Sequence record: NC_054933.1
From: Escherichia phage teqhad
Length of the DNA stretch: 64,000 bases
Strand: one strand, 5' to 3'
Made by a program: the position numbers and the translations under genes. The notes under the pieces are model-generated. The model was given only the letters and a program-made list of their open reading frames with translations, was not told the origin of the DNA and ran no database searches. Below, one piece after another: positions 2,954 through 54,121 of this stretch. How positions within the stretch are numbered: the stretch's first letter is position 1; every line of letters starts with the position of its first letter.

Positions 2954-3511
2954 TTAAATGGAAAGATACCATCCGTTGTAGTTGCTTTTTCTTACAACCT
3001 TACGAAGGTCTTCTCTGTCACCGATGAACTTCGGAGTGTACTGGATGACACCTGGATGAATTTCTTTAGTGTTGAATATAATTATACAGTCAGCGACTTG
3101 ATGATTTAGAATGGGCCCTAGATTTATTCCAGAACCGTATGGATACTCTCCGCTGCATCCTGTTGTTACAGAAATCCAACGTGAGCCAGTTTGGTGTGTC
3201 TTAACTTCTACACGAAGCCCGCAGTATTTTGGATGCGCCAATACATCCCATGCATATGTGTAAGGATCATCGACATCTTCTTGGCCTTTATTGACATATC
3301 CGCTTAGCCAATCTGCCACGAAAAACTCTGCGTACACAGCGATACGGCATCTTTCGATAACTTCTGCTTTATCCTGGTTCGGGTTTTGTTTTAAAGAGTA
3401 TCTTGCTGTATCAGCAATTTTGACCTTCATTTCACTAGTCAAGTCACTGTTCGATAGGGTAAATGTCGGAATCTGAAATAGTCTCTGTAAACCCGGATTC
3501 GTTTTCTGCAT
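2954..3511 (-). CDS. denB: DenB-like endonuclease IV (185 aa)
   Basis: 185 aa ORF directly downstream of rIIB, the same size and position as T4 denB; AAAGGAAAG SD. Confidence 0.6.
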   Translation of the reverse strand: MQKTNPGLQRLFQIPTFTLSNSDLTSEMKVKIADTARYSLKQNPNQDKAEVIERCRIAVYAEFFVADWLSGYVNKGQEDVDDPYTYAWDVLAHPKYCGLRVEVKTHQTGSRWISVTTGCSGEYPYGSGINLGPILNHQVADCIIIFNTKEIHPGVIQYTPKFIGDREDLRKVVRKSNYNGWYLSI

Positions 3512-3575
3512 TTAGACTTTCCTTTTATGTCGGAATCACTGATATTCATATATAAATCATAATTTCTCTTAAAAC

Positions 3576-3595
3576 AAAAGGGCCGAAGCCCTTAT
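3576..3595 (-). terminator. intrinsic terminator-like hairpin (GGGC-UUCG-GCCC plus U-tract)
   Basis: Minus-strand RNA AAGGGCUUCGGCCCUUUUGUUUU just 3' of the 64-aa ORF. Confidence 0.55.
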
Positions 3596-3596
3596 T

Positions 3597-3791
3597 TTAT
3601 TTGAATTGTGCAATTCTTTTCTCTAGACATTCAGCATAAGATTTCATTGAGATGAACTGTGAAAGTAACAGTTCTTGCTCAACTGCACTAACTGTTAGAA
3701 ACTTTGCGCTTTCTAAAAATTTACTCAGTGCATTAATTTTGAGCATTAATTGATCGTATTCTTCTTTTACTCGTGCTTGATAACCTAACAT
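3597..3791 (-). CDS. hypothetical protein (64 aa)
   Basis: ORF in track, flanked by UUCG hairpins. Confidence 0.5.
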   Translation of the reverse strand: MLGYQARVKEEYDQLMLKINALSKFLESAKFLTVSAVEQELLLSQFISMKSYAECLEKRIAQFK

Positions 3792-7190: not shown

Positions 7191-7220
7191 ATTATACCAC
7201 ATCCTTGTGGTAAAGTAAAC
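7191..7220 (-). promoter_or_regulatory. T4-type early promoter (overlaps the 3' end of gene 39)
   Basis: Minus strand GTTTACTTTACCACAAGGATGTGGTATAAT; near-identical copy at 54092..54121. Confidence 0.55.
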
Positions 7221-9110: not shown

Positions 9111-9376
9111 TTAAAACGGATAGTCGAATCTTTGAAGAATAGACCAGAACATACTGTTCCTTCTACTTTCTGCCCGGTAGGTCCAACAGCACGAAATCCA
9201 GTATGTTGGAAATCATTTTCAGAACAACCGAACCAATTATATCCAGTGATTTCAATATTAGTAAAACCACTTGAAGACAAAACTTTGGTTGCATTATCAG
9301 CATCAGTACATCCTACTAAAGACACTGTTAATACTAATGCTGCAATAGAACGATTAATATATTTCATAATTTTCAC
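9107..9376 (-). CDS. putative lipoprotein (89 aa)
   Basis: Signal peptide with lipobox ...LTVSLVGC. Confidence 0.55.
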   Translation of the reverse strand: MKIMKYINRSIAALVLTVSLVGCTDADNATKVLSSSGFTNIEITGYNWFGCSENDFQHTGFRAVGPTGQKVEGTVCSGLFFKDSTIRFK

Positions 9377-9744
9377 TTAAATTTAATGGCTTGAAGAAGA
9401 CTAATAATTCTCAAGCGACTTCTTTCATCTTTAACTGTAAAAGAAAGAGGGTCACCAGATTTCATAGTAATAGTACATTCAAAATCAAAATCTTCTGTGA
9501 CTTCTTCGAAGAAGTCAAATTCTTCAGCATAAATTAGAACATTACTCTGCATACTGTGAAGAATTTTTCCGTTATTTCCAGACGCTGTACTAATCATCGT
9601 AACATTATGACCTTTCATATCTTCAACGATAAATTCGCTTGTAGATATTACAGCATTAATAGAACCATTCCTATAAATAGCAGACATTAGATATTTCTTT
9701 TCTTCGCCTTCGCGAATACGATATTTCTTACCGATTTTAAACAT
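9373..9744 (-). CDS. hypothetical protein (123 aa)
   Basis: Track ORF 9373..9750 begins at GTG; the ATG at 9744 is preferred. Confidence 0.5.
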   Translation of the reverse strand: MFKIGKKYRIREGEEKKYLMSAIYRNGSINAVISTSEFIVEDMKGHNVTMISTASGNNGKILHSMQSNVLIYAEEFDFFEEVTEDFDFECTITMKSGDPLSFTVKDERSRLRIISLLQAIKFK

Positions 9745-9923
9745 AATCACCCTTTAAGTAAGTCGTAAAATCCGCCATTCACATGCTTAGGAGCAGAAGC
9801 CCGACGAGTAGACAAACGATGACATTTAGGGCAAACATCATTTTCTCGTTCAGAAATCTTTTTAATTTTTTCATATTCATGCCCGCAATCTTCGGATTGG
9901 CATTTATAATCATACATTGGCAT
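9744..9923 (-). CDS. zinc-ribbon protein (59 aa, CxxC...CxxC)
   Basis: Hand-translated MPMYDYKCQSEDCGHEYEKIKKISERENDVCPKCHRLSTRR...; not in track (<60 aa). Confidence 0.45.
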
Positions 9924-9925
9924 AA

Positions 9926-10351
9926 TTATTCCTTAAAATGAGCTTTCAGCATCTGATACAAGGACCATGCCTGTTCATTATTTTCAATAGTAACTTTCAT
10001 GACAGGAAATTCTGTGAAATCTTCTATTTGTTCTTGCTCTTGCTCTTCCTGCTCTTGCTCTTCAGCTGCCTGATATGGATTTTCCACTTCATCAAAGAAC
10101 TCAGCTTCGTTAGTAGAGAGCCAGATAAAGTTTTCGTCAAGGATATCACCATGTGTTGCATATCCAATTGTGCCAGTAAATGACATAATTTTAGTAGGAC
10201 GACCAAGATGGTCAACATCTAAAATTTTAAAAGGATGCATACCTAAACGTCGTGCATAAATTCCGTTATCAGTATGGTCTTTAATAAAAGCTTCTTGAGC
10301 TTGTTTATTTTTAAATTGATACCATTTATTAACTTCAAATTTAATAGCCAT
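9926..10351 (-). CDS. goF: GoF-like protein (141 aa) with acidic EQ repeat
   Basis: 141 aa, the size and position of T4 goF; contains [12 protein letters not shown]. Confidence 0.5.
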
Positions 10352-10566
10352 TAATAAATTTCCTTCCAGTAAGTTGTGCCATCTTCAGTAATTTCACGAA
10401 ATACACCGTAAATTGGTTGTTTATCACCAACCTTTTCATACACATAAACCGAAGTCAAGTGAGTAAACTTAACGGTATGTTCCTTTTGAACTACTACCAA
10501 ATCTGGATCGAATAATACATCTTCAAATTCGTCATTAGTGCAGTTCTGAACAATTTTACGTTTCAT
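10351..10566 (-). CDS. cef: Cef-like protein (71 aa)
   Basis: 71 aa ORF directly after goF, as in T4. Confidence 0.5.
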
Positions 10567-10579
10567 TACAATTTCCTCA

Positions 10580-10849
10580 TTAATTGAACAGTGGAGCGAT
10601 GCGTTTCAGAAGAGTAGCAGCACCTTTGGCAAATTTTACATCATGAAAAACAGTTTCTTCTTCCGTTACAACACGAGCTTTAATGTTTTCACAATCCCAA
10701 TTTTTGCGAACAATCTTCAAAAGCTGCAGTAAATCTTTACATTCAGCAATATCGATAACACATCCACGAGAATCTTCCATTATCGCACGATAACCGTAAG
10801 CCATACCATAATCATTGAAAGATTGCTCGATGATAATTAAATTTTCCAT
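10580..10849 (-). CDS. hypothetical protein (89 aa)
   Basis: Track ORF starts at TTG inside the conserved leader; the ATG at 10849 follows GGAGAATAAA. Confidence 0.5.
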   Translation of the reverse strand: MENLIIIEQSFNDYGMAYGYRAIMEDSRGCVIDIAECKDLLQLLKIVRKNWDCENIKARVVTEEETVFHDVKFAKGAATLLKRIAPLFN

Positions 10850-10955
10850 TTTATTCTCCAAGTTGTTTTCTGTATCAGTAGTTGATATTGATATAGTACC
10901 ATAATCAACTACTGATGTATATAGTTTTATGAAAAATTTTAAACTTTATGCAAAT

Positions 10956-11375
10956 TTATGCTAAAGCTGCTTCGCACCATTTTTTAATTTGGAATTCAGG
11001 AACTACCATGAACTGGCCTGCAAAAACAATATTGTAGAGCTTGACACCATCTTCTACCCAACGGTCCGAAATAAAACCAGCGACTTGATTCGTTGTCCAT
11101 GGAGTTCCATCTGTTGCCGCCGCAATTGTGAATTTATGGTCTTTTACAACTAAAACTGAAGAACAAAGTTTCCATTTAAATGCGCTTTCTTCTGGCTCAA
11201 TGAACTGACTTGAGACATAACCAATGTTACCATCAGCGTCACGAACTTTAACCTCGTTACGACCAAAAACTGGATCACTTACAGAAAGAACTTCAACCAG
11301 CTTTCCTGCAACTTTAGAACGAGAAGCAACGGATACATATACGTAATCACCAGTAGAGAGATTTACAATATTCAT
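10956..11375 (-). CDS. hypothetical protein, tandem paralog 1 of 3 (139 aa)
   Basis: Shares N-terminal SRSKxAGxLVEV and C-terminal DxWVEDGxKLYNIVF motifs with 11385..11858. Confidence 0.6.
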   Translation of the reverse strand: MNIVNLSTGDYVYVSVASRSKVAGKLVEVLSVSDPVFGRNEVKVRDADGNIGYVSSQFIEPEESAFKWKLCSSVLVVKDHKFTIAAATDGTPWTTNQVAGFISDRWVEDGVKLYNIVFAGQFMVVPEFQIKKWCEAALA

Positions 11376-11384
11376 AATAATTCC

Positions 11385-11858
11385 TTAAGCTTTACGAGGA
11401 GAAGCATAACGAGTGATTTCAGATTCTTCAACAACCCGGAAGTCACCTAAGAATACGATATTGTAGAGCTTTTCACCATCTTCAACCCATTGGTCTGTGA
11501 TGAAGCCACACATCCTATCAGTTTTACTTGGACCAGCGAAATCATCAATATAATCGAATTCTTCATCAGTTACAAATTCAACGCCTTTACACAACGCCCA
11601 TTTAAATTGTGCATTAGACTCAGTGGATTCAACTTCTTCAACAGAAGCAAAATGAGAGCTAACACGAGTTTCCAGAAATTTAGGACTTACGTAAGCGTAC
11701 TGAGTTTCAGTTTTTCCAGAACTAGGAATGATTCGAACTTTAACTTCTATAACACGACCAGTACCATTAGTACGAAGTCCTACCACTTCAACTAGACGAC
11801 CTGCAGCTTTAGAACGAGATGCAGACGATACACGCTTAATTTCACCGATAGTAATCAT
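11385..11858 (-). CDS. hypothetical protein, tandem paralog 2 of 3 (157 aa)
   Basis: See paralog 1. Confidence 0.6.
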   Translation of the reverse strand: MITIGEIKRVSSASRSKAAGRLVEVVGLRTNGTGRVIEVKVRIIPSSGKTETQYAYVSPKFLETRVSSHFASVEEVESTESNAQFKWALCKGVEFVTDEEFDYIDDFAGPSKTDRMCGFITDQWVEDGEKLYNIVFLGDFRVVEESEITRYASPRKA

Positions 11859-11930
11859 AATTTTTCTCTCTTTGTTGTTAAGATTTATTCTCCATGAGAG
11901 CCATTATAACAGGCTCTCTATAAAGTAAAC

Positions 11931-12425
11931 TTAATTAAGGATATTAATTACTGCACTACGTGGAACTACACTAAAATCACCTGCATGAACAACGTTCAGA
12001 AGTTCAACACCGTCTTCAATCCACTGATCAGTTACCCATCCACTCACTGGACCTGCGAACGGACGTCGAATTGAAACAGCTTTACACAACAAATCAGTAG
12101 GCTCAATAGGCTTAACCAGAGTACCGTACATACAAGCGATATCCATATCAATACAGATGTCTTTAACGGGTTCTACTTCTTCAATCAACAGTTCAAAGTC
12201 GGTGCTTGGAAGGGCGGTAGTAGAAATTGTACCGTATGAATTTTTAATTTCTAAGAATAACCAAGGGCCTTCAGCTTGTTTGATGAAGTTAACAATAGTG
12301 AAACTATTACCTTGAGTGGCGCCTAAAATTTCACAAAACTTTTCATAAGCTCGCACTGAAGCACCATACCAGTTGATTTGCTTTTCGTCTTTCAGGATGT
12401 AAGTAGCTGTAGTACTGATATTCAT
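11931..12425 (-). CDS. hypothetical protein, tandem paralog 3 of 3 (164 aa)
   Basis: C-terminal GWVTDQWIEDGVELLNVVHAGDFSVV is related to paralogs 1 and 2. Confidence 0.55.
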   Translation of the reverse strand: MNISTTATYILKDEKQINWYGASVRAYEKFCEILGATQGNSFTIVNFIKQAEGPWLFLEIKNSYGTISTTALPSTDFELLIEEVEPVKDICIDMDIACMYGTLVKPIEPTDLLCKAVSIRRPFAGPVSGWVTDQWIEDGVELLNVVHAGDFSVVPRSAVINILN

Positions 12426-12436
12426 AATGTTTTCCC

Positions 12437-12940
12437 TTAATCTAAGGTAATAAAGCCTTTTAATTCGGCATGTGACTTGCGGAACATTACTTGATGACCG
12501 CCAATGATAACTTGGTCATCAGGTACTTCGTATACAGCGAGATAAAATCCTTTAGAAGCTAATTCTTCACGCTCTTCTCGTGTGAACCATCTCATCATAT
12601 CATATTCGCTAGCGAAAGCAAAATGATAAAGAGCTATAAACCATCCTGGAATATAGTGATCTACGCCTACATATTCTTCTTTCTCAAAATTAGTATTAAT
12701 TGCTATATTAGCATTTTTAACTAATAGTTTGTCTTCGTGCGGAAGAGGAATTCTTTTATTATCATTACTATGATGCATAAAATTAGGTCTGTCATAACCT
12801 ACGTGTAATAACCACTCTTCGCTCCATGAATCTATTATACTCCTGTATGGCGTTATTTGAACACAAAGATCTCGACGTATTGTTATAGCATCTTCATAAT
12901 TAAGAATACTAAATGATGATTCAACACGATAAATTTTCAT
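12437..12940 (-). CDS. hypothetical protein (167 aa)
   Basis: Internal ATG at 12940 with GAGGAT SD downstream of the early promoter. Confidence 0.5.
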   Translation of the reverse strand: MKIYRVESSFSILNYEDAITIRRDLCVQITPYRSIIDSWSEEWLLHVGYDRPNFMHHSNDNKRIPLPHEDKLLVKNANIAINTNFEKEEYVGVDHYIPGWFIALYHFAFASEYDMMRWFTREEREELASKGFYLAVYEVPDDQVIIGGHQVMFRKSHAELKGFITLD

Positions 12941-12964
12941 TTTATTATCCTCAGTAGCTATGGT

Positions 12965-12998
12965 GTTATAGTACCACAACTAACCGAGGAAGTAAACA
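12965..12998 (-). promoter_or_regulatory. T4-type early promoter
   Basis: Minus strand GTTTACTTCCTCGGTTAGTTGTGGTACTATAAC. Confidence 0.55.
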
Positions 12999-13002
12999 AC
13001 TT

Positions 13003-13686
13003 TTATCGTTTTGTTGGAAGAGACAGAGGATCGCATTCTTCCTCTGACGGAGCATCTTCAAGACCCATAGCATATCGCAAAGCATACTTCATCATCAGGA
13101 TGTCTTTCGCACAGTCATGAATAGAATCATGTGCAACGAATCCATCTAAAGTTCCTTTTGGAAGAGGACACGTGGTCATATCACGAACAAGCAGAAGTGC
13201 TTCAATTCTGGTACGAATATCACGCTGATTCCAGAATTTACAAGGTTCTAACTTAAATGTATCAAGCTCATTCTCGGAAACGCCGTTAAGACGTTGAATA
13301 TCGCGAATGAGATCAACTAAAATTGGAAAATCAAACGACATTCCACGGCACCAGCCTTGAGATTTCCAAGGATCGATATTATGCGCATTGATGTAATCAT
13401 TAAATTTTGCAATACCATCGATAGTGCTTACATCTTCATCTGATGGTGCAATATTTTTTCGAGCTTCAGGAGATTGATTTTTCCACCATTCGATAGTGCT
13501 TTTAGTAAAAAGACGATGTCCTTTTTGGCTTTTTAAATCAAATTTGATTTTAATGCCACGTGAAACTAATTCATCAAATGTTTCAACGACTTCTGGATTA
13601 GGGTCAAAAGCAATTACAGCCAAATCAATAACAGCTGCTTTTTCACCGCTTCCCATTGTTTCAAAATCTATAATAAAATCAAACAT
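13003..13686 (-). CDS. dexA: exonuclease A (DEDDh 3'-5' exonuclease, 227 aa)
   Basis: MFDFIIDFETMG... DxE exonuclease motif; 227 aa as T4 DexA. Confidence 0.8.
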   Translation of the reverse strand: MFDFIIDFETMGSGEKAAVIDLAVIAFDPNPEVVETFDELVSRGIKIKFDLKSQKGHRLFTKSTIEWWKNQSPEARKNIAPSDEDVSTIDGIAKFNDYINAHNIDPWKSQGWCRGMSFDFPILVDLIRDIQRLNGVSENELDTFKLEPCKFWNQRDIRTRIEALLLVRDMTTCPLPKGTLDGFVAHDSIHDCAKDILMMKYALRYAMGLEDAPSEEECDPLSLPTKR

Positions 13687-13943
13687 TAAACTTTCCTCGC
13701 TAAATCGCGAATTTGGCCTACAGTATAGTCTTGAATATAAACTTTATTAATAGGCTCATCAATAAATTTTGCCATAGATTCAATATCTTTTTGTATCTCT
13801 TTAAGACTGTATACTATCTTTGAAGCTTTTTCGCGAATAGTAATATTTTCAGGACCTGGATTTTCTTCAATGACAGCTTTAACATTTGTCATAAGAGATT
13901 TAAACTGGTACCAACTCAACTCAATCATTAATAATCGCCTCAT
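13686..13943 (-). CDS. hypothetical protein (85 aa), small tandem paralog
   Basis: Similar in length and motif (..DYxVGxI..) to 13921..14181. Confidence 0.5.
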   Translation of the reverse strand: MRRLLMIELSWYQFKSLMTNVKAVIEENPGPENITIREKASKIVYSLKEIQKDIESMAKFIDEPINKVYIQDYTVGQIRDLARKV

Positions 13944-20266: not shown

Positions 20267-20298
20267 CTATTATACCATACTCATTGTGGAAAGTAAAC
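20267..20298 (-). promoter_or_regulatory. T4-type early promoter
   Basis: Minus strand GTTTACTTTCCACAATGAGTATGGTATAAT. Confidence 0.55.
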
Positions 20299-27839: not shown

Positions 27840-28688
27840 TTAATCAACTGCTATTGGATGAATAGCATTAAACTTATGAAATGCTTCTGATTTTTCTTTA
27901 CGTGAAACGCACATGCGAAGAACCTTTAATGGTTCGTCTTCTTCACCCAACGATTTTCGTTTTTCAATATTAGAAGTTTTCCAACGAGCTTGCTCTGGAA
28001 ACTCTCTATTAATCTGCTCAAGCGCTCTATTATGTTTAGAATTACTACGAATTGAACTGCACCCGCCAGGAGCTTGTGCTTTTCCAGATACAACTAGATA
28101 TTTGAACAAGGCCAAATGCGGATAACCTTGATTAATTAAATTGAGAAATGCATACATATCTTCGCATAAATCAATTTTTCCATACCCAATTTGTTCTGTC
28201 GTAAGTTTTCCGAGGTCATACCATGTATTCGTGAATCCATATGAATTTTCACGATAATTACCCCAAGATGAAGTAATTTTAAAAATAGGTAGACGAGCAT
28301 GGCCATGATAATACCCGCAATCCATGGCATCCTCAACATATTGAATCAATTCATAGAACTGTTCACGAGTCAATTGATTGACTTTATCTACGCAACGACG
28401 ATCATCTCTTTTTCGCATTGAACTCATACGAATAGTAGTATCATCGTCAATCATCCAGATTCGTTGACCTGCATACATATCGGTAATTGCTTTACGAGTA
28501 CCGGCAATTCCGTTTACATCATCAGGAATAGTTATAATTTTAGCTCTAGACCCATAAGCGTCATGATAAGCTTTTTCTTCATGTTCACGCACTACAATAT
28601 GCGGTTCATAATCAGTCGGAAACATATCAAGGGCAGAAACTGCCCCGACACGTTGATAACTTGGAATTACGAATTGAATCATTTCCAC
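27840..28688 (-). CDS. putative DNA glycosyltransferase (282 aa) at the beta-gt position
   Basis: Lies between uvsX and 42; has a hydrophobic DDD motif (IWMIDDDTTI) and does not resemble the 351 aa T4 beta-gt that I recall. Confidence 0.5.
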   Translation of the reverse strand: MEMIQFVIPSYQRVGAVSALDMFPTDYEPHIVVREHEEKAYHDAYGSRAKIITIPDDVNGIAGTRKAITDMYAGQRIWMIDDDTTIRMSSMRKRDDRRCVDKVNQLTREQFYELIQYVEDAMDCGYYHGHARLPIFKITSSWGNYRENSYGFTNTWYDLGKLTTEQIGYGKIDLCEDMYAFLNLINQGYPHLALFKYLVVSGKAQAPGGCSSIRSNSKHNRALEQINREFPEQARWKTSNIEKRKSLGEEDEPLKVLRMCVSRKEKSEAFHKFNAIHPIAVD

Positions 28689-45612: not shown

Positions 45613-45906
45613 TCAGCTGTAACGATAACACTCGTTTGATTTACGTTTAGCAACTCGTTGAGAAGTATTATAATCAAAATCATCGTCAATGTAAACTGAT
45701 TTTTTCAACTTTCTTACTTCACCGCGTAATTGACGATTTAGCTCATCTTTAACTTCTGAATCAATACCTTTCATTCTACGCCATTTATCTGAGCGAAAAA
45801 TGTTTTCAACCATATCTTTATGACTTACACCATCAGGAGCTTTACGCTTTCCGAAATAGTCATAATCACGTACTTTTAAATCTTTACGACGATACGTTTT
45901 ACCCAT
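45613..45906 (-). CDS. hypothetical basic protein (97 aa)
   Basis: Track ORF trimmed to MGKTYRRKDLK...; ATGGGTAA coupling with the upstream small ORF. Confidence 0.45.
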   Translation of the reverse strand: MGKTYRRKDLKVRDYDYFGKRKAPDGVSHKDMVENIFRSDKWRRMKGIDSEVKDELNRQLRGEVRKLKKSVYIDDDFDYNTSQRVAKRKSNECYRYS

Positions 45907-50456: not shown

Positions 50457-50579
50457 GTCCCATCTCCATATCAATTAAGTCATTTATCGTTGGTTCATTA
50501 TATACTGTTTCTTCATCAGTGTAAACCGGTTCTTCCGGCTCTGGCTCTACAGTTTCCCATCTAGCCGCCCACCAAGGTT

Positions 50580-54091: not shown

Positions 54092-54121
54092 ATTATACCA
54101 CATCCTTGTGGCAAAGTAAAC
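54092..54121 (-). promoter_or_regulatory. T4-type early promoter, near-identical to the copy at 7191..7220
   Basis: Minus strand GTTTACTTTGCCACAAGGATGTGGTATAATG. Confidence 0.55.

Follow-up and report, generated by a model that had tools for sequence, protein, structure and literature searches.

Why would a T4-like phage keep three neighbouring genes whose proteins end in the same motif, and are these genes three copies of one? The question is raised by a 64,000-nucleotide (nt) stretch of Escherichia phage teqhad (sequence record NC_054933.1; hereafter the window), where open reading frames (ORFs) of 139, 157 and 164 amino acids (aa) follow one another at 10956-11375, 11385-11858 and 11931-12425. 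All three lie on the minus strand, to which all coordinates below refer unless stated otherwise. An earlier sequence-only reading had described them as serially duplicated paralogs of unknown function in the goF-dexA accessory region, and its positions and motifs were confirmed: the C-terminal motif occurs in all three ORFs (FISDRWVEDGVKLYNIVF, FITDQWVEDGEKLYNIVF and WVTDQWIEDGVELLNVVH), the N-terminal SRSK.AG.LVEV is confined to the 139- and 157-aa ORFs, and a regular-expression scan of six frames over 64 kb found neither motif elsewhere in the window. The observation is real but ordinary, in that the trio consists of genes already known: motB.1 at 164 aa, motB at 157 aa and, at 139 aa, a second copy of motB. 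Taken as a whole, the locus is best explained, with a probability of roughly 0.6, as a MotB-family cassette that combines a DNA-binding MotB with specialised variants.

Family membership and descent of the three genes

Family searches assigned all three proteins, by sequence, to the MotB family (PF17613; gathering cutoff 25 bits), with scores of 140.4 bits for the 157-aa, 72.1 for the 139-aa and 35.0 for the 164-aa protein, and PHROG assignments agree with this membership (phrog_1671 at E 1e-67 for motB and E 1e-50 for the second copy; phrog_2333 at E 1.1e-82 over residues 1-164 for motB.1). The first two match at full length (profile positions 2-158 of 162 for the 157-aa protein, phrog_1671 positions 2-166 for the 139-aa protein), whereas the 164-aa protein fails a full-length MotB match, its PF17613 match being limited to aa 84-159 and to profile positions 78-153. 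Pairwise BLASTP aligned the 139- and 157-aa proteins over their full length (E 4e-29, 40% identity), and the 164-aa protein with the 157-aa (E 1e-11) and 139-aa proteins (E 6e-11) over only the last 29-42 residues. Domain profiles, built from family alignments of database homologs that were cut into domains and compared by hhalign, related the C-terminal domains of MotB and MotB.1 with a probability of 98.9% (E 2.2e-17, 36 columns) and their N-terminal domains with a probability of 0.5%. Among 1642 six-frame segments, hidden Markov models (HMMs) of the C-terminal domain matched these three only, with cross-matches at E 1e-12 to 1e-13 and the next match at E 0.3, and regular expressions together with four domain HMMs found no further family member in any of the six frames of the window.

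The stretch that MotB.1 has in common with the other two is short, which might suggest convergence or chance rather than common descent. We consider this scarcely credible: the BLASTP, hhalign (E 2e-17), Pfam and HMM statistics refute it, the Pfam scores lying above the cutoff and the HMM cross-matches being the sole ones in the window, and the motif sits at the same protein position in adjacent genes. The motif matches, which the sequence-only reading had made conditional on alignment statistics, are likewise supported by BLASTP, hhalign and HMM comparisons.

Its claim of serial duplication holds for the 139/157-aa pair, which has both domains in common, but not for the 164-aa protein, where only a 36-residue core is common and the N-terminal domain is unrelated. 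The sequence comparisons therefore describe one gene duplication plus domain shuffling rather than a simple serial triplication, with the 157-aa protein as the MotB ortholog and the 164-aa protein as the domain-shuffled relative MotB.1 rather than a third full copy. An internal duplication behind the two barrels of MotB was also considered and rejected (N- versus C-terminal hhalign probability 0.6-2.6%). Ratios of non-synonymous to synonymous substitution (dN/dS) against Mosigvirus orthologs were 0.10-0.21 for the three genes, which implies purifying selection and thus that all three are maintained. Both the paralogy and the placement in the dexA-goF accessory region, with the trio flanked by dexA and cef/goF, are borne out by Pfam and by synteny with T4 and RB51.

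Both the family and its make-up, with a common C-terminal domain, N-terminal domains that differ and an arrangement of two MotB and one MotB.1, are known from the literature. From an alignment of 102 phage homologs, Patterson-West et al. 2021 (PMC7827196) reported that MotB and MotB.1 have the C-terminal domain in common and differ in the N-terminal domain, and suggested duplication; the same study places MotB.1 in 'Category 2' and lists RB51 in Table S6 with 3 homologs, 2 MotB and 1 MotB.1.

Domain architecture and charge

AlphaFold2 (AF2) models, which cover the 139- and 164-aa proteins, revealed two small beta-barrels in each, with a mean predicted local distance difference test (pLDDT) of 85.2 and a predicted template modelling score (pTM) of 0.66 for the 139-aa protein, and a mean pLDDT of 79.7 for the 164-aa protein, where residues 86-108 fall below 50. 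The sole helical turn in each domain lies between strands 4 and 5, as in the SH3-like order, such that the models show the KOW/SH3-like barrel fold, and the helix or connection between strands 3 and 4 that characterises an OB-fold is absent from the C-terminal domain models. Each of the three proteins consists of two small beta-barrel domains and a linker, all domains look like SH3/Tudor/KOW-like barrels, and the C-terminal core, with the consensus G(F/W)(I/V)(S/T)D(Q/R)W(V/I)EDGxxL(Y/L)N(I/V)V, forms strands 2-5 of an SH3/Tudor-like barrel. The likeness to KOW, Tudor and SH3-like barrels (the NusG C-terminal domain, Spt5 KOW, 53BP1 and PHF19 Tudor, PsaE) is one of fold and not of family membership: Pfam returned neither a KOW (PF00467) nor a Tudor match to the three proteins at E up to 0.1, and the only related match was a weak one of the 139-aa protein to SH3_3 (E 0.079). 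A sequence search of the PDB returned no match for MotB and, for MotB.1, only a chance-level one to the SH3-like domain of FYN-binding protein (E 0.044). Structure matches in BFVD include T4 P39415 (MotB.1), MotB relatives and GoF, the aligned domain not being resolved in these matches, and GoF reached only rank 36 (E 0.03).

In the window's motB, the KOW-like N-terminal barrel (aa 1-64; 11667-11858) is basic, with a net charge of +6, and is followed by an acidic linker (aa 65-84) and by the C-terminal barrel (aa 85-157; 11388-11606; net -7). The N-terminal barrel carries the motif SRSKAAGRLVEV at 11784-11819 (regular-expression match), whose positions are at least 90% conserved in a 56-sequence family alignment, and the 36-residue C-terminal core RMCGFITDQWVEDGEKLYNIVFLGDFRVVEESEITR (aa 115-150; 11409-11516) was delimited by BLASTP and a three-way C-terminal alignment. 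The protein is 99% identical to RB51 MotB. It has the family (PF17613), the two-domain layout and, between dexA/motB.1 and cef, the locus in common with T4 MotB (NP_049626), in which SRSKAAGKLVEV and ITDQWVEDGVKLYN are conserved as well. The two phages differ in that T4 carries one motB copy and the window two.

Charges were compared across the family by domain. Among 41 primary MotB sequences, the N-terminal domain has a net charge of +2 to +7 (mean +5.2), the linker is acidic and the C-terminal domain ranges from -7 to +3. The 139-aa type (15 sequences) has -3 to 0 in the N-terminal and -1 to +3 in the C-terminal domain. MotB.1-type proteins have -11 to 0 as a whole, with -7 to +3 in the N-terminal domain, -1 to -6 in the linker and -4 to 0 in the C-terminal domain. 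A consistently basic N-terminal domain is therefore found in primary MotB only, and the 139- and 164-aa proteins of the window are without a basic domain.

Probable functions of the cassette

The description 'function unknown' is outdated for the founder of the family. T4 MotB is an early protein that binds host and modified T4 DNA tightly and non-specifically, co-purifies with H-NS and StpA, is toxic when over-expressed, and doubles burst size (PMC6070864); through it, H-NS footprints are changed and host genes under H-NS control are de-repressed (PMC7827196). By analogy, DNA binding without sequence preference is probable for the 157-aa MotB, which would remodel H-NS/StpA-DNA complexes early in infection and so modestly raise phage yield. 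Judged from net charge, the contact with DNA probably lies in the consistently basic KOW-like N-terminal barrel, and the common C-terminal barrel, because it is never strongly basic, is the likelier partner-binding or oligomerisation module. A C-terminal domain that looks SH3/Tudor-like rather than OB-fold likewise points to the KOW-like N-terminal domain for DNA binding. Our models agree with the published assignment of the MotB N-terminal domain to KOW. The 139-aa copy no longer has a basic N-terminal surface and MotB.1 is acidic throughout; both would then be specialised variants that keep the same C-terminal module and have a different nucleic-acid ligand or none.

Several points weigh against this account. 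The known function comes from T4 MotB, and the window proteins are known here from sequence and models; the 157-aa MotB has only 48% identity to its T4 counterpart and is acidic as a whole owing to its C-terminal domain and linker (net -4 and isoelectric point (pI) 5.2, versus net +6 and pI 9.2 in T4), so that tight non-specific DNA binding may not carry over. The assignment of DNA to the N-terminal and a partner to the C-terminal domain follows from net charge only, and HHpred in PMC7827196 assigns an OB-fold, cold-shock DNA-binding-like, to the MotB C-terminal domain, with which our models disagree. In T4, a motB knock-down hardly alters the transcriptome, and deleting motB.1 is without effect on the burst (PMC6070864, PMC12152347).

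The second motB copy

The gene for the 139-aa protein begins 9 nt past the motB stop and is the gene annotated 'similar to motB' as RB51ORF010 and RB69ORF010c, in the same place directly after motB; what is new here for this gene is only the non-basic N-terminal domain across the clade. The protein has the two-barrel architecture of MotB; its linker is very short, and its N-terminal domain carries a net charge of -2. Its KOW-like motif SRSKVAGKLVEV lies at 11289-11324 (regular-expression match), and its 36-residue C-terminal core QVAGFISDRWVEDGVKLYNIVFAGQFMVVPEFQIKK (aa 97-132; 10980-11087) was aligned by hhalign. Its sequence matches that of RB51 and RB68 with 100% identity and those of Mosigvirus with 86-89%. 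Orthologs of at least 80% identity were found in 206 of 772 MotB-carrying phage records, and none at 60-80%. About 200 records hold a 157-aa-type motB (at least 60% identity), and the examples among the matches listed all show two matching places, which, with the closeness of the counts (~200 versus 206), suggests that the 157- and 139-aa types occur jointly, as one cassette.

Might this copy be a redundant duplicate that is drifting to loss, with no role of its own? It is missing in T4 and in ~73% of MotB-carrying phage records, its basic N-terminal surface has been lost, and the locus is full of the marks of deletions (what T4 retains of the 93-aa ORF and the P0240 fusion, both described below). 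Yet its reading frame is unbroken, a ribosome-binding site is present 9 nt past the motB stop, its dN/dS is 0.13-0.20, its AF2 model is confident, and 83-100% identity is kept in 206 records from two genera, without intermediates to motB. We therefore regard drift to loss as quite improbable and prefer a specialised variant, in which case a second MotB copy without the basic surface would not simply provide extra dosage.

MotB.1 and its truncated allele in the T4 reference

MotB.1 of the window consists of an N-terminal LSm/SH3-like domain (aa 1-85; 12171-12425), a low-confidence linker (aa 86-108; 12102-12170) and a C-terminal barrel (aa 109-164; 11934-12101). In the N-terminal model the strands span residues 8-11, 42-49, 55-61, 67-73 and 80-82 and a helix spans 26-37; DSSP placed the strands of the C-terminal barrel at 127-137, 140-147, 150-155 and 159-163, such that the 36-residue core PVSGWVTDQWIEDGVELLNVVHAGDFSVVPRSAVIN (aa 126-161; 11943-12050; the segment aligned by hhalign at 98.9%) takes up strands 2-5 of the barrel. 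The protein is 98% identical to that of Mosigvirus PhAPEC2 and 76% to that of RB51. It agrees with T4 MotB.1 (P39415 / NP_049627) in the type of N-terminal domain, the C-terminal core and the position between motB.2 and motB, and differs in its linker, where 21 residues (…IDMDIACMYGTLVKP…) are inserted relative to the 143-145-aa T4-type proteins.

A short, conserved linear motif, hydrophobic-D-x-D-V/I-A-S/C-M-Y-x-T-...-P-L, which the T4-type proteins of 143-145 aa do not have, turns up repeatedly ahead of MotB.1-type C-terminal domains whatever the N-terminal domain (in its longer form …D-x-D-V/I-A-S/C-M-Y-G/L-T-L/P-x-K/x-P-L…, with IDMDIACMYGTLVKP as the window instance within aa 86-108). In relatives (P0138, P0228, P0229, P0234 and P0237-P0239) it stands at N-termini or between two LSm-like domains. 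Since the motif resembles the PTDLLCKAVSIRRP segment that follows it, it could represent a local repeat, or else a peptide docking site.

The T4 reference (AF158101.6 / NC_000866.4) carries one extra G within the WIEDG codons of motB.1, which yields a protein of 119 aa that ends in GRWR and is without strands 3-5 of the conserved domain (3292-3651 of the T4 piece, compared with 11931-12425 of the window and with 150-581 of two further record pieces). In the phage GenBank collection, this extra G is missing from 11 other T4 genome records as well as from RB55 and RB59, and MT984581 and HM137666 annotate a MotB.1 of 143 aa in which the C-terminal domain is complete. Exact patterns of the two alleles gave no match in IMG/VR. 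The motB.1 constructs of PMC12152347 were gene-synthesised, with NC_000866.4 cited and a monomer mass of 13.8 kDa, and the MotB.1 assayed there thus appears to be the truncated 119-aa form.

This allele bears on a second way of reading the cassette, namely that one common partner (for example H-NS/StpA or another MotB-family member) is engaged through the C-terminal core as a docking or oligomerisation module, onto which N-terminal barrels have been swapped to form an adaptor system. Through these barrels, whether basic KOW-like, non-basic KOW-like or single or double LSm-like, the one partner would then be delivered to different ligands. We hold this as a tentative possibility; if it were true, the published null results for T4 MotB.1 would have come from a form without most of the module.

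The three proteins could also be RNA-directed: KOW, LSm-like and Tudor-like barrels would then bind transcripts, or host proteins that handle RNA, and have a post-transcriptional effect such as has been suggested for GoF. The neighbours goF and cef affect mRNA and tRNA, and StpA, which co-purifies with MotB, is an RNA chaperone. In the LSm-like fold group of Kim et al. 2025 (PMC12152347), the MotB.1 N-terminal domain stands beside GoF and Frd.2, a grouping to which PHROG and BFVD lend weak support. However, direct DNA binding and co-purification with DNA are known for T4 MotB (PMC6070864), both MotB.1 and the 139-aa protein are acidic, and MotB.1 had no effect in an RNA-stability reporter (PMC12152347), though with what appears to be the 119-aa form, and on balance we consider an RNA-directed role unlikely. 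The DNA-binding MotB with specialised variants remains our preferred account; it carries little weight as a discovery, and offers points useful to work on T4 host take-over.

Distribution and history of the locus

By sequence the window belongs to a T4-like phage of the genus Tequatrovirus: Shigella phage KRT47 is 99.1% and RB51 94% identical over 9300-13700, and ~700 records from Tequatrovirus and related genera match this region. The motB.1 - motB - second motB cassette lies in the T4 early-gene block and is that of Mosigvirus and a subset of Tequatrovirus. Synteny of the dexA-cef/goF early region holds with T4, RB51, Aplg8, Mizar and PhAPEC2, and in Mosigvirus PhAPEC2 motB.1, motB and the 139-aa gene follow in identical order. 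The window's motB and 139-aa gene are 99-100% identical to those of RB51 and 85-89% to those of PhAPEC2. Because motB.1 is Mosigvirus-like but motB and the 139-aa gene are RB51-like, the sequence implies a mosaic with a recombination junction near the 72-nt motB.1/motB spacer (11859-11930), which holds a promoter-like site and a hairpin.

T4 has motB.1 and motB only, the 139-aa gene being wholly missing, and the 3' flank of T4 motB is the 3' flank of the window's 139-aa gene. From this flank identity one could entertain the idea that T4 MotB is a recombinant of the 157- and 139-aa types, but a plain tandem duplication of one ancestral gene would leave the same flank, and T4 MotB agrees equally well with both types over its final 29 residues (14/29 each, by hand count). 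The dexA-cef locus is prone to deletions. In T4 the small ORF that separates motB from cef has undergone an out-of-frame deletion of ~210 nt, whose junction shows GAAAATT/TAAAATT microhomology (window 10580-10861 versus 2484-2653 of the compared NC_000866.4 piece), and in another phage the 43-aa P0240 is the N-terminus of MotB.2 fused to the C-terminus of MotB.1.

A profile of the three C-terminal domains matched 26 clusters among 1.84 billion representative proteins. All matches are proteins of 43-251 aa in which the domain is C-terminal, those with a named source all come from T4-like phages, and so no outside relative is there to lend a function. The N-terminal parts of this family vary, and include KOW-like domains, one or two LSm-like domains and short leaders.

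DNA and RNA elements

The spacer between motB.1 and motB carries GTTTAC-N16-TATAAT at 11903-11930, just upstream of motB, which we take to be the T4 early-promoter pattern, and T4 has an equivalent GTTTAC...TATAAT site at the same place. GTTTAC-N15-18-TATAAT occurs 7 times as an exact match in the window, against 0.11 expected, and six of the seven lie on the minus strand. The six further sites (minus strand: 7191-7220, 20269-20298, 45667-45696, 50497-50526 and 54092-54121; plus strand: 28512-28538) are probably early promoters of the phage, and three of them have the longer form GTTTACTTT(A/G/C)CCACAA…TGGTATAAT in common. A generic scan for sigma-70 promoters and terminators did no better than on shuffled sequence and missed the GTTTAC-type site.

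A hairpin with the stem GAGAGCC/GGCUCUC (11890-11925; minimum free energy (MFE) -17 kcal/mol, z -3.3) overlaps the promoter-like site. At the same position T4 has a different stem, GGGACC/GGUCCC, that is still paired. After the 139-aa gene lies a perfect 13-bp stem-loop (10874-10916; MFE -20.8 kcal/mol, z -4.8), identical in T4, where it follows motB, and in RB51; no U-run follows it, and a part in RNA processing or stability is conceivable.

Neighbouring genes

Upstream of the trio lie dexA, for exonuclease A (13003-13686; 227 aa; from the annotation of matching records), and a motB.2 homolog (12437-12979; phrog_1106 E 6e-57), which is listed at 180 aa and is without the MotB motif. Its true start is probably the ATG at 12940 (MKIYRVESSF...), and RB51 motB.2 is annotated at 167 aa. 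Downstream are the small ORF of RB51ncORF009c type (10580-10861; 93 aa as listed; phrog_3720 E 1e-46), which follows the second motB copy (RB51ncORF010c / RB69ORF010c type), then cef (10351-10566; 71 aa; Pfam T4_Cef E 5.5e-35) and goF (9926-10351; 141 aa; goF families in PHROG). GoF and a 125-aa ORF of RB32ORF005c type (9373-9750) both match phrog_622 and the goF PHROGs, and these matches would fit the published GoF/Frd.2/MotB.1 N-terminal domain family, with several members within 3 kb. The 125-aa ORF additionally matches the MotB.1 family phrog_2333 (E 5e-4) and, weakly, Pfam FRD2 (E 0.014).

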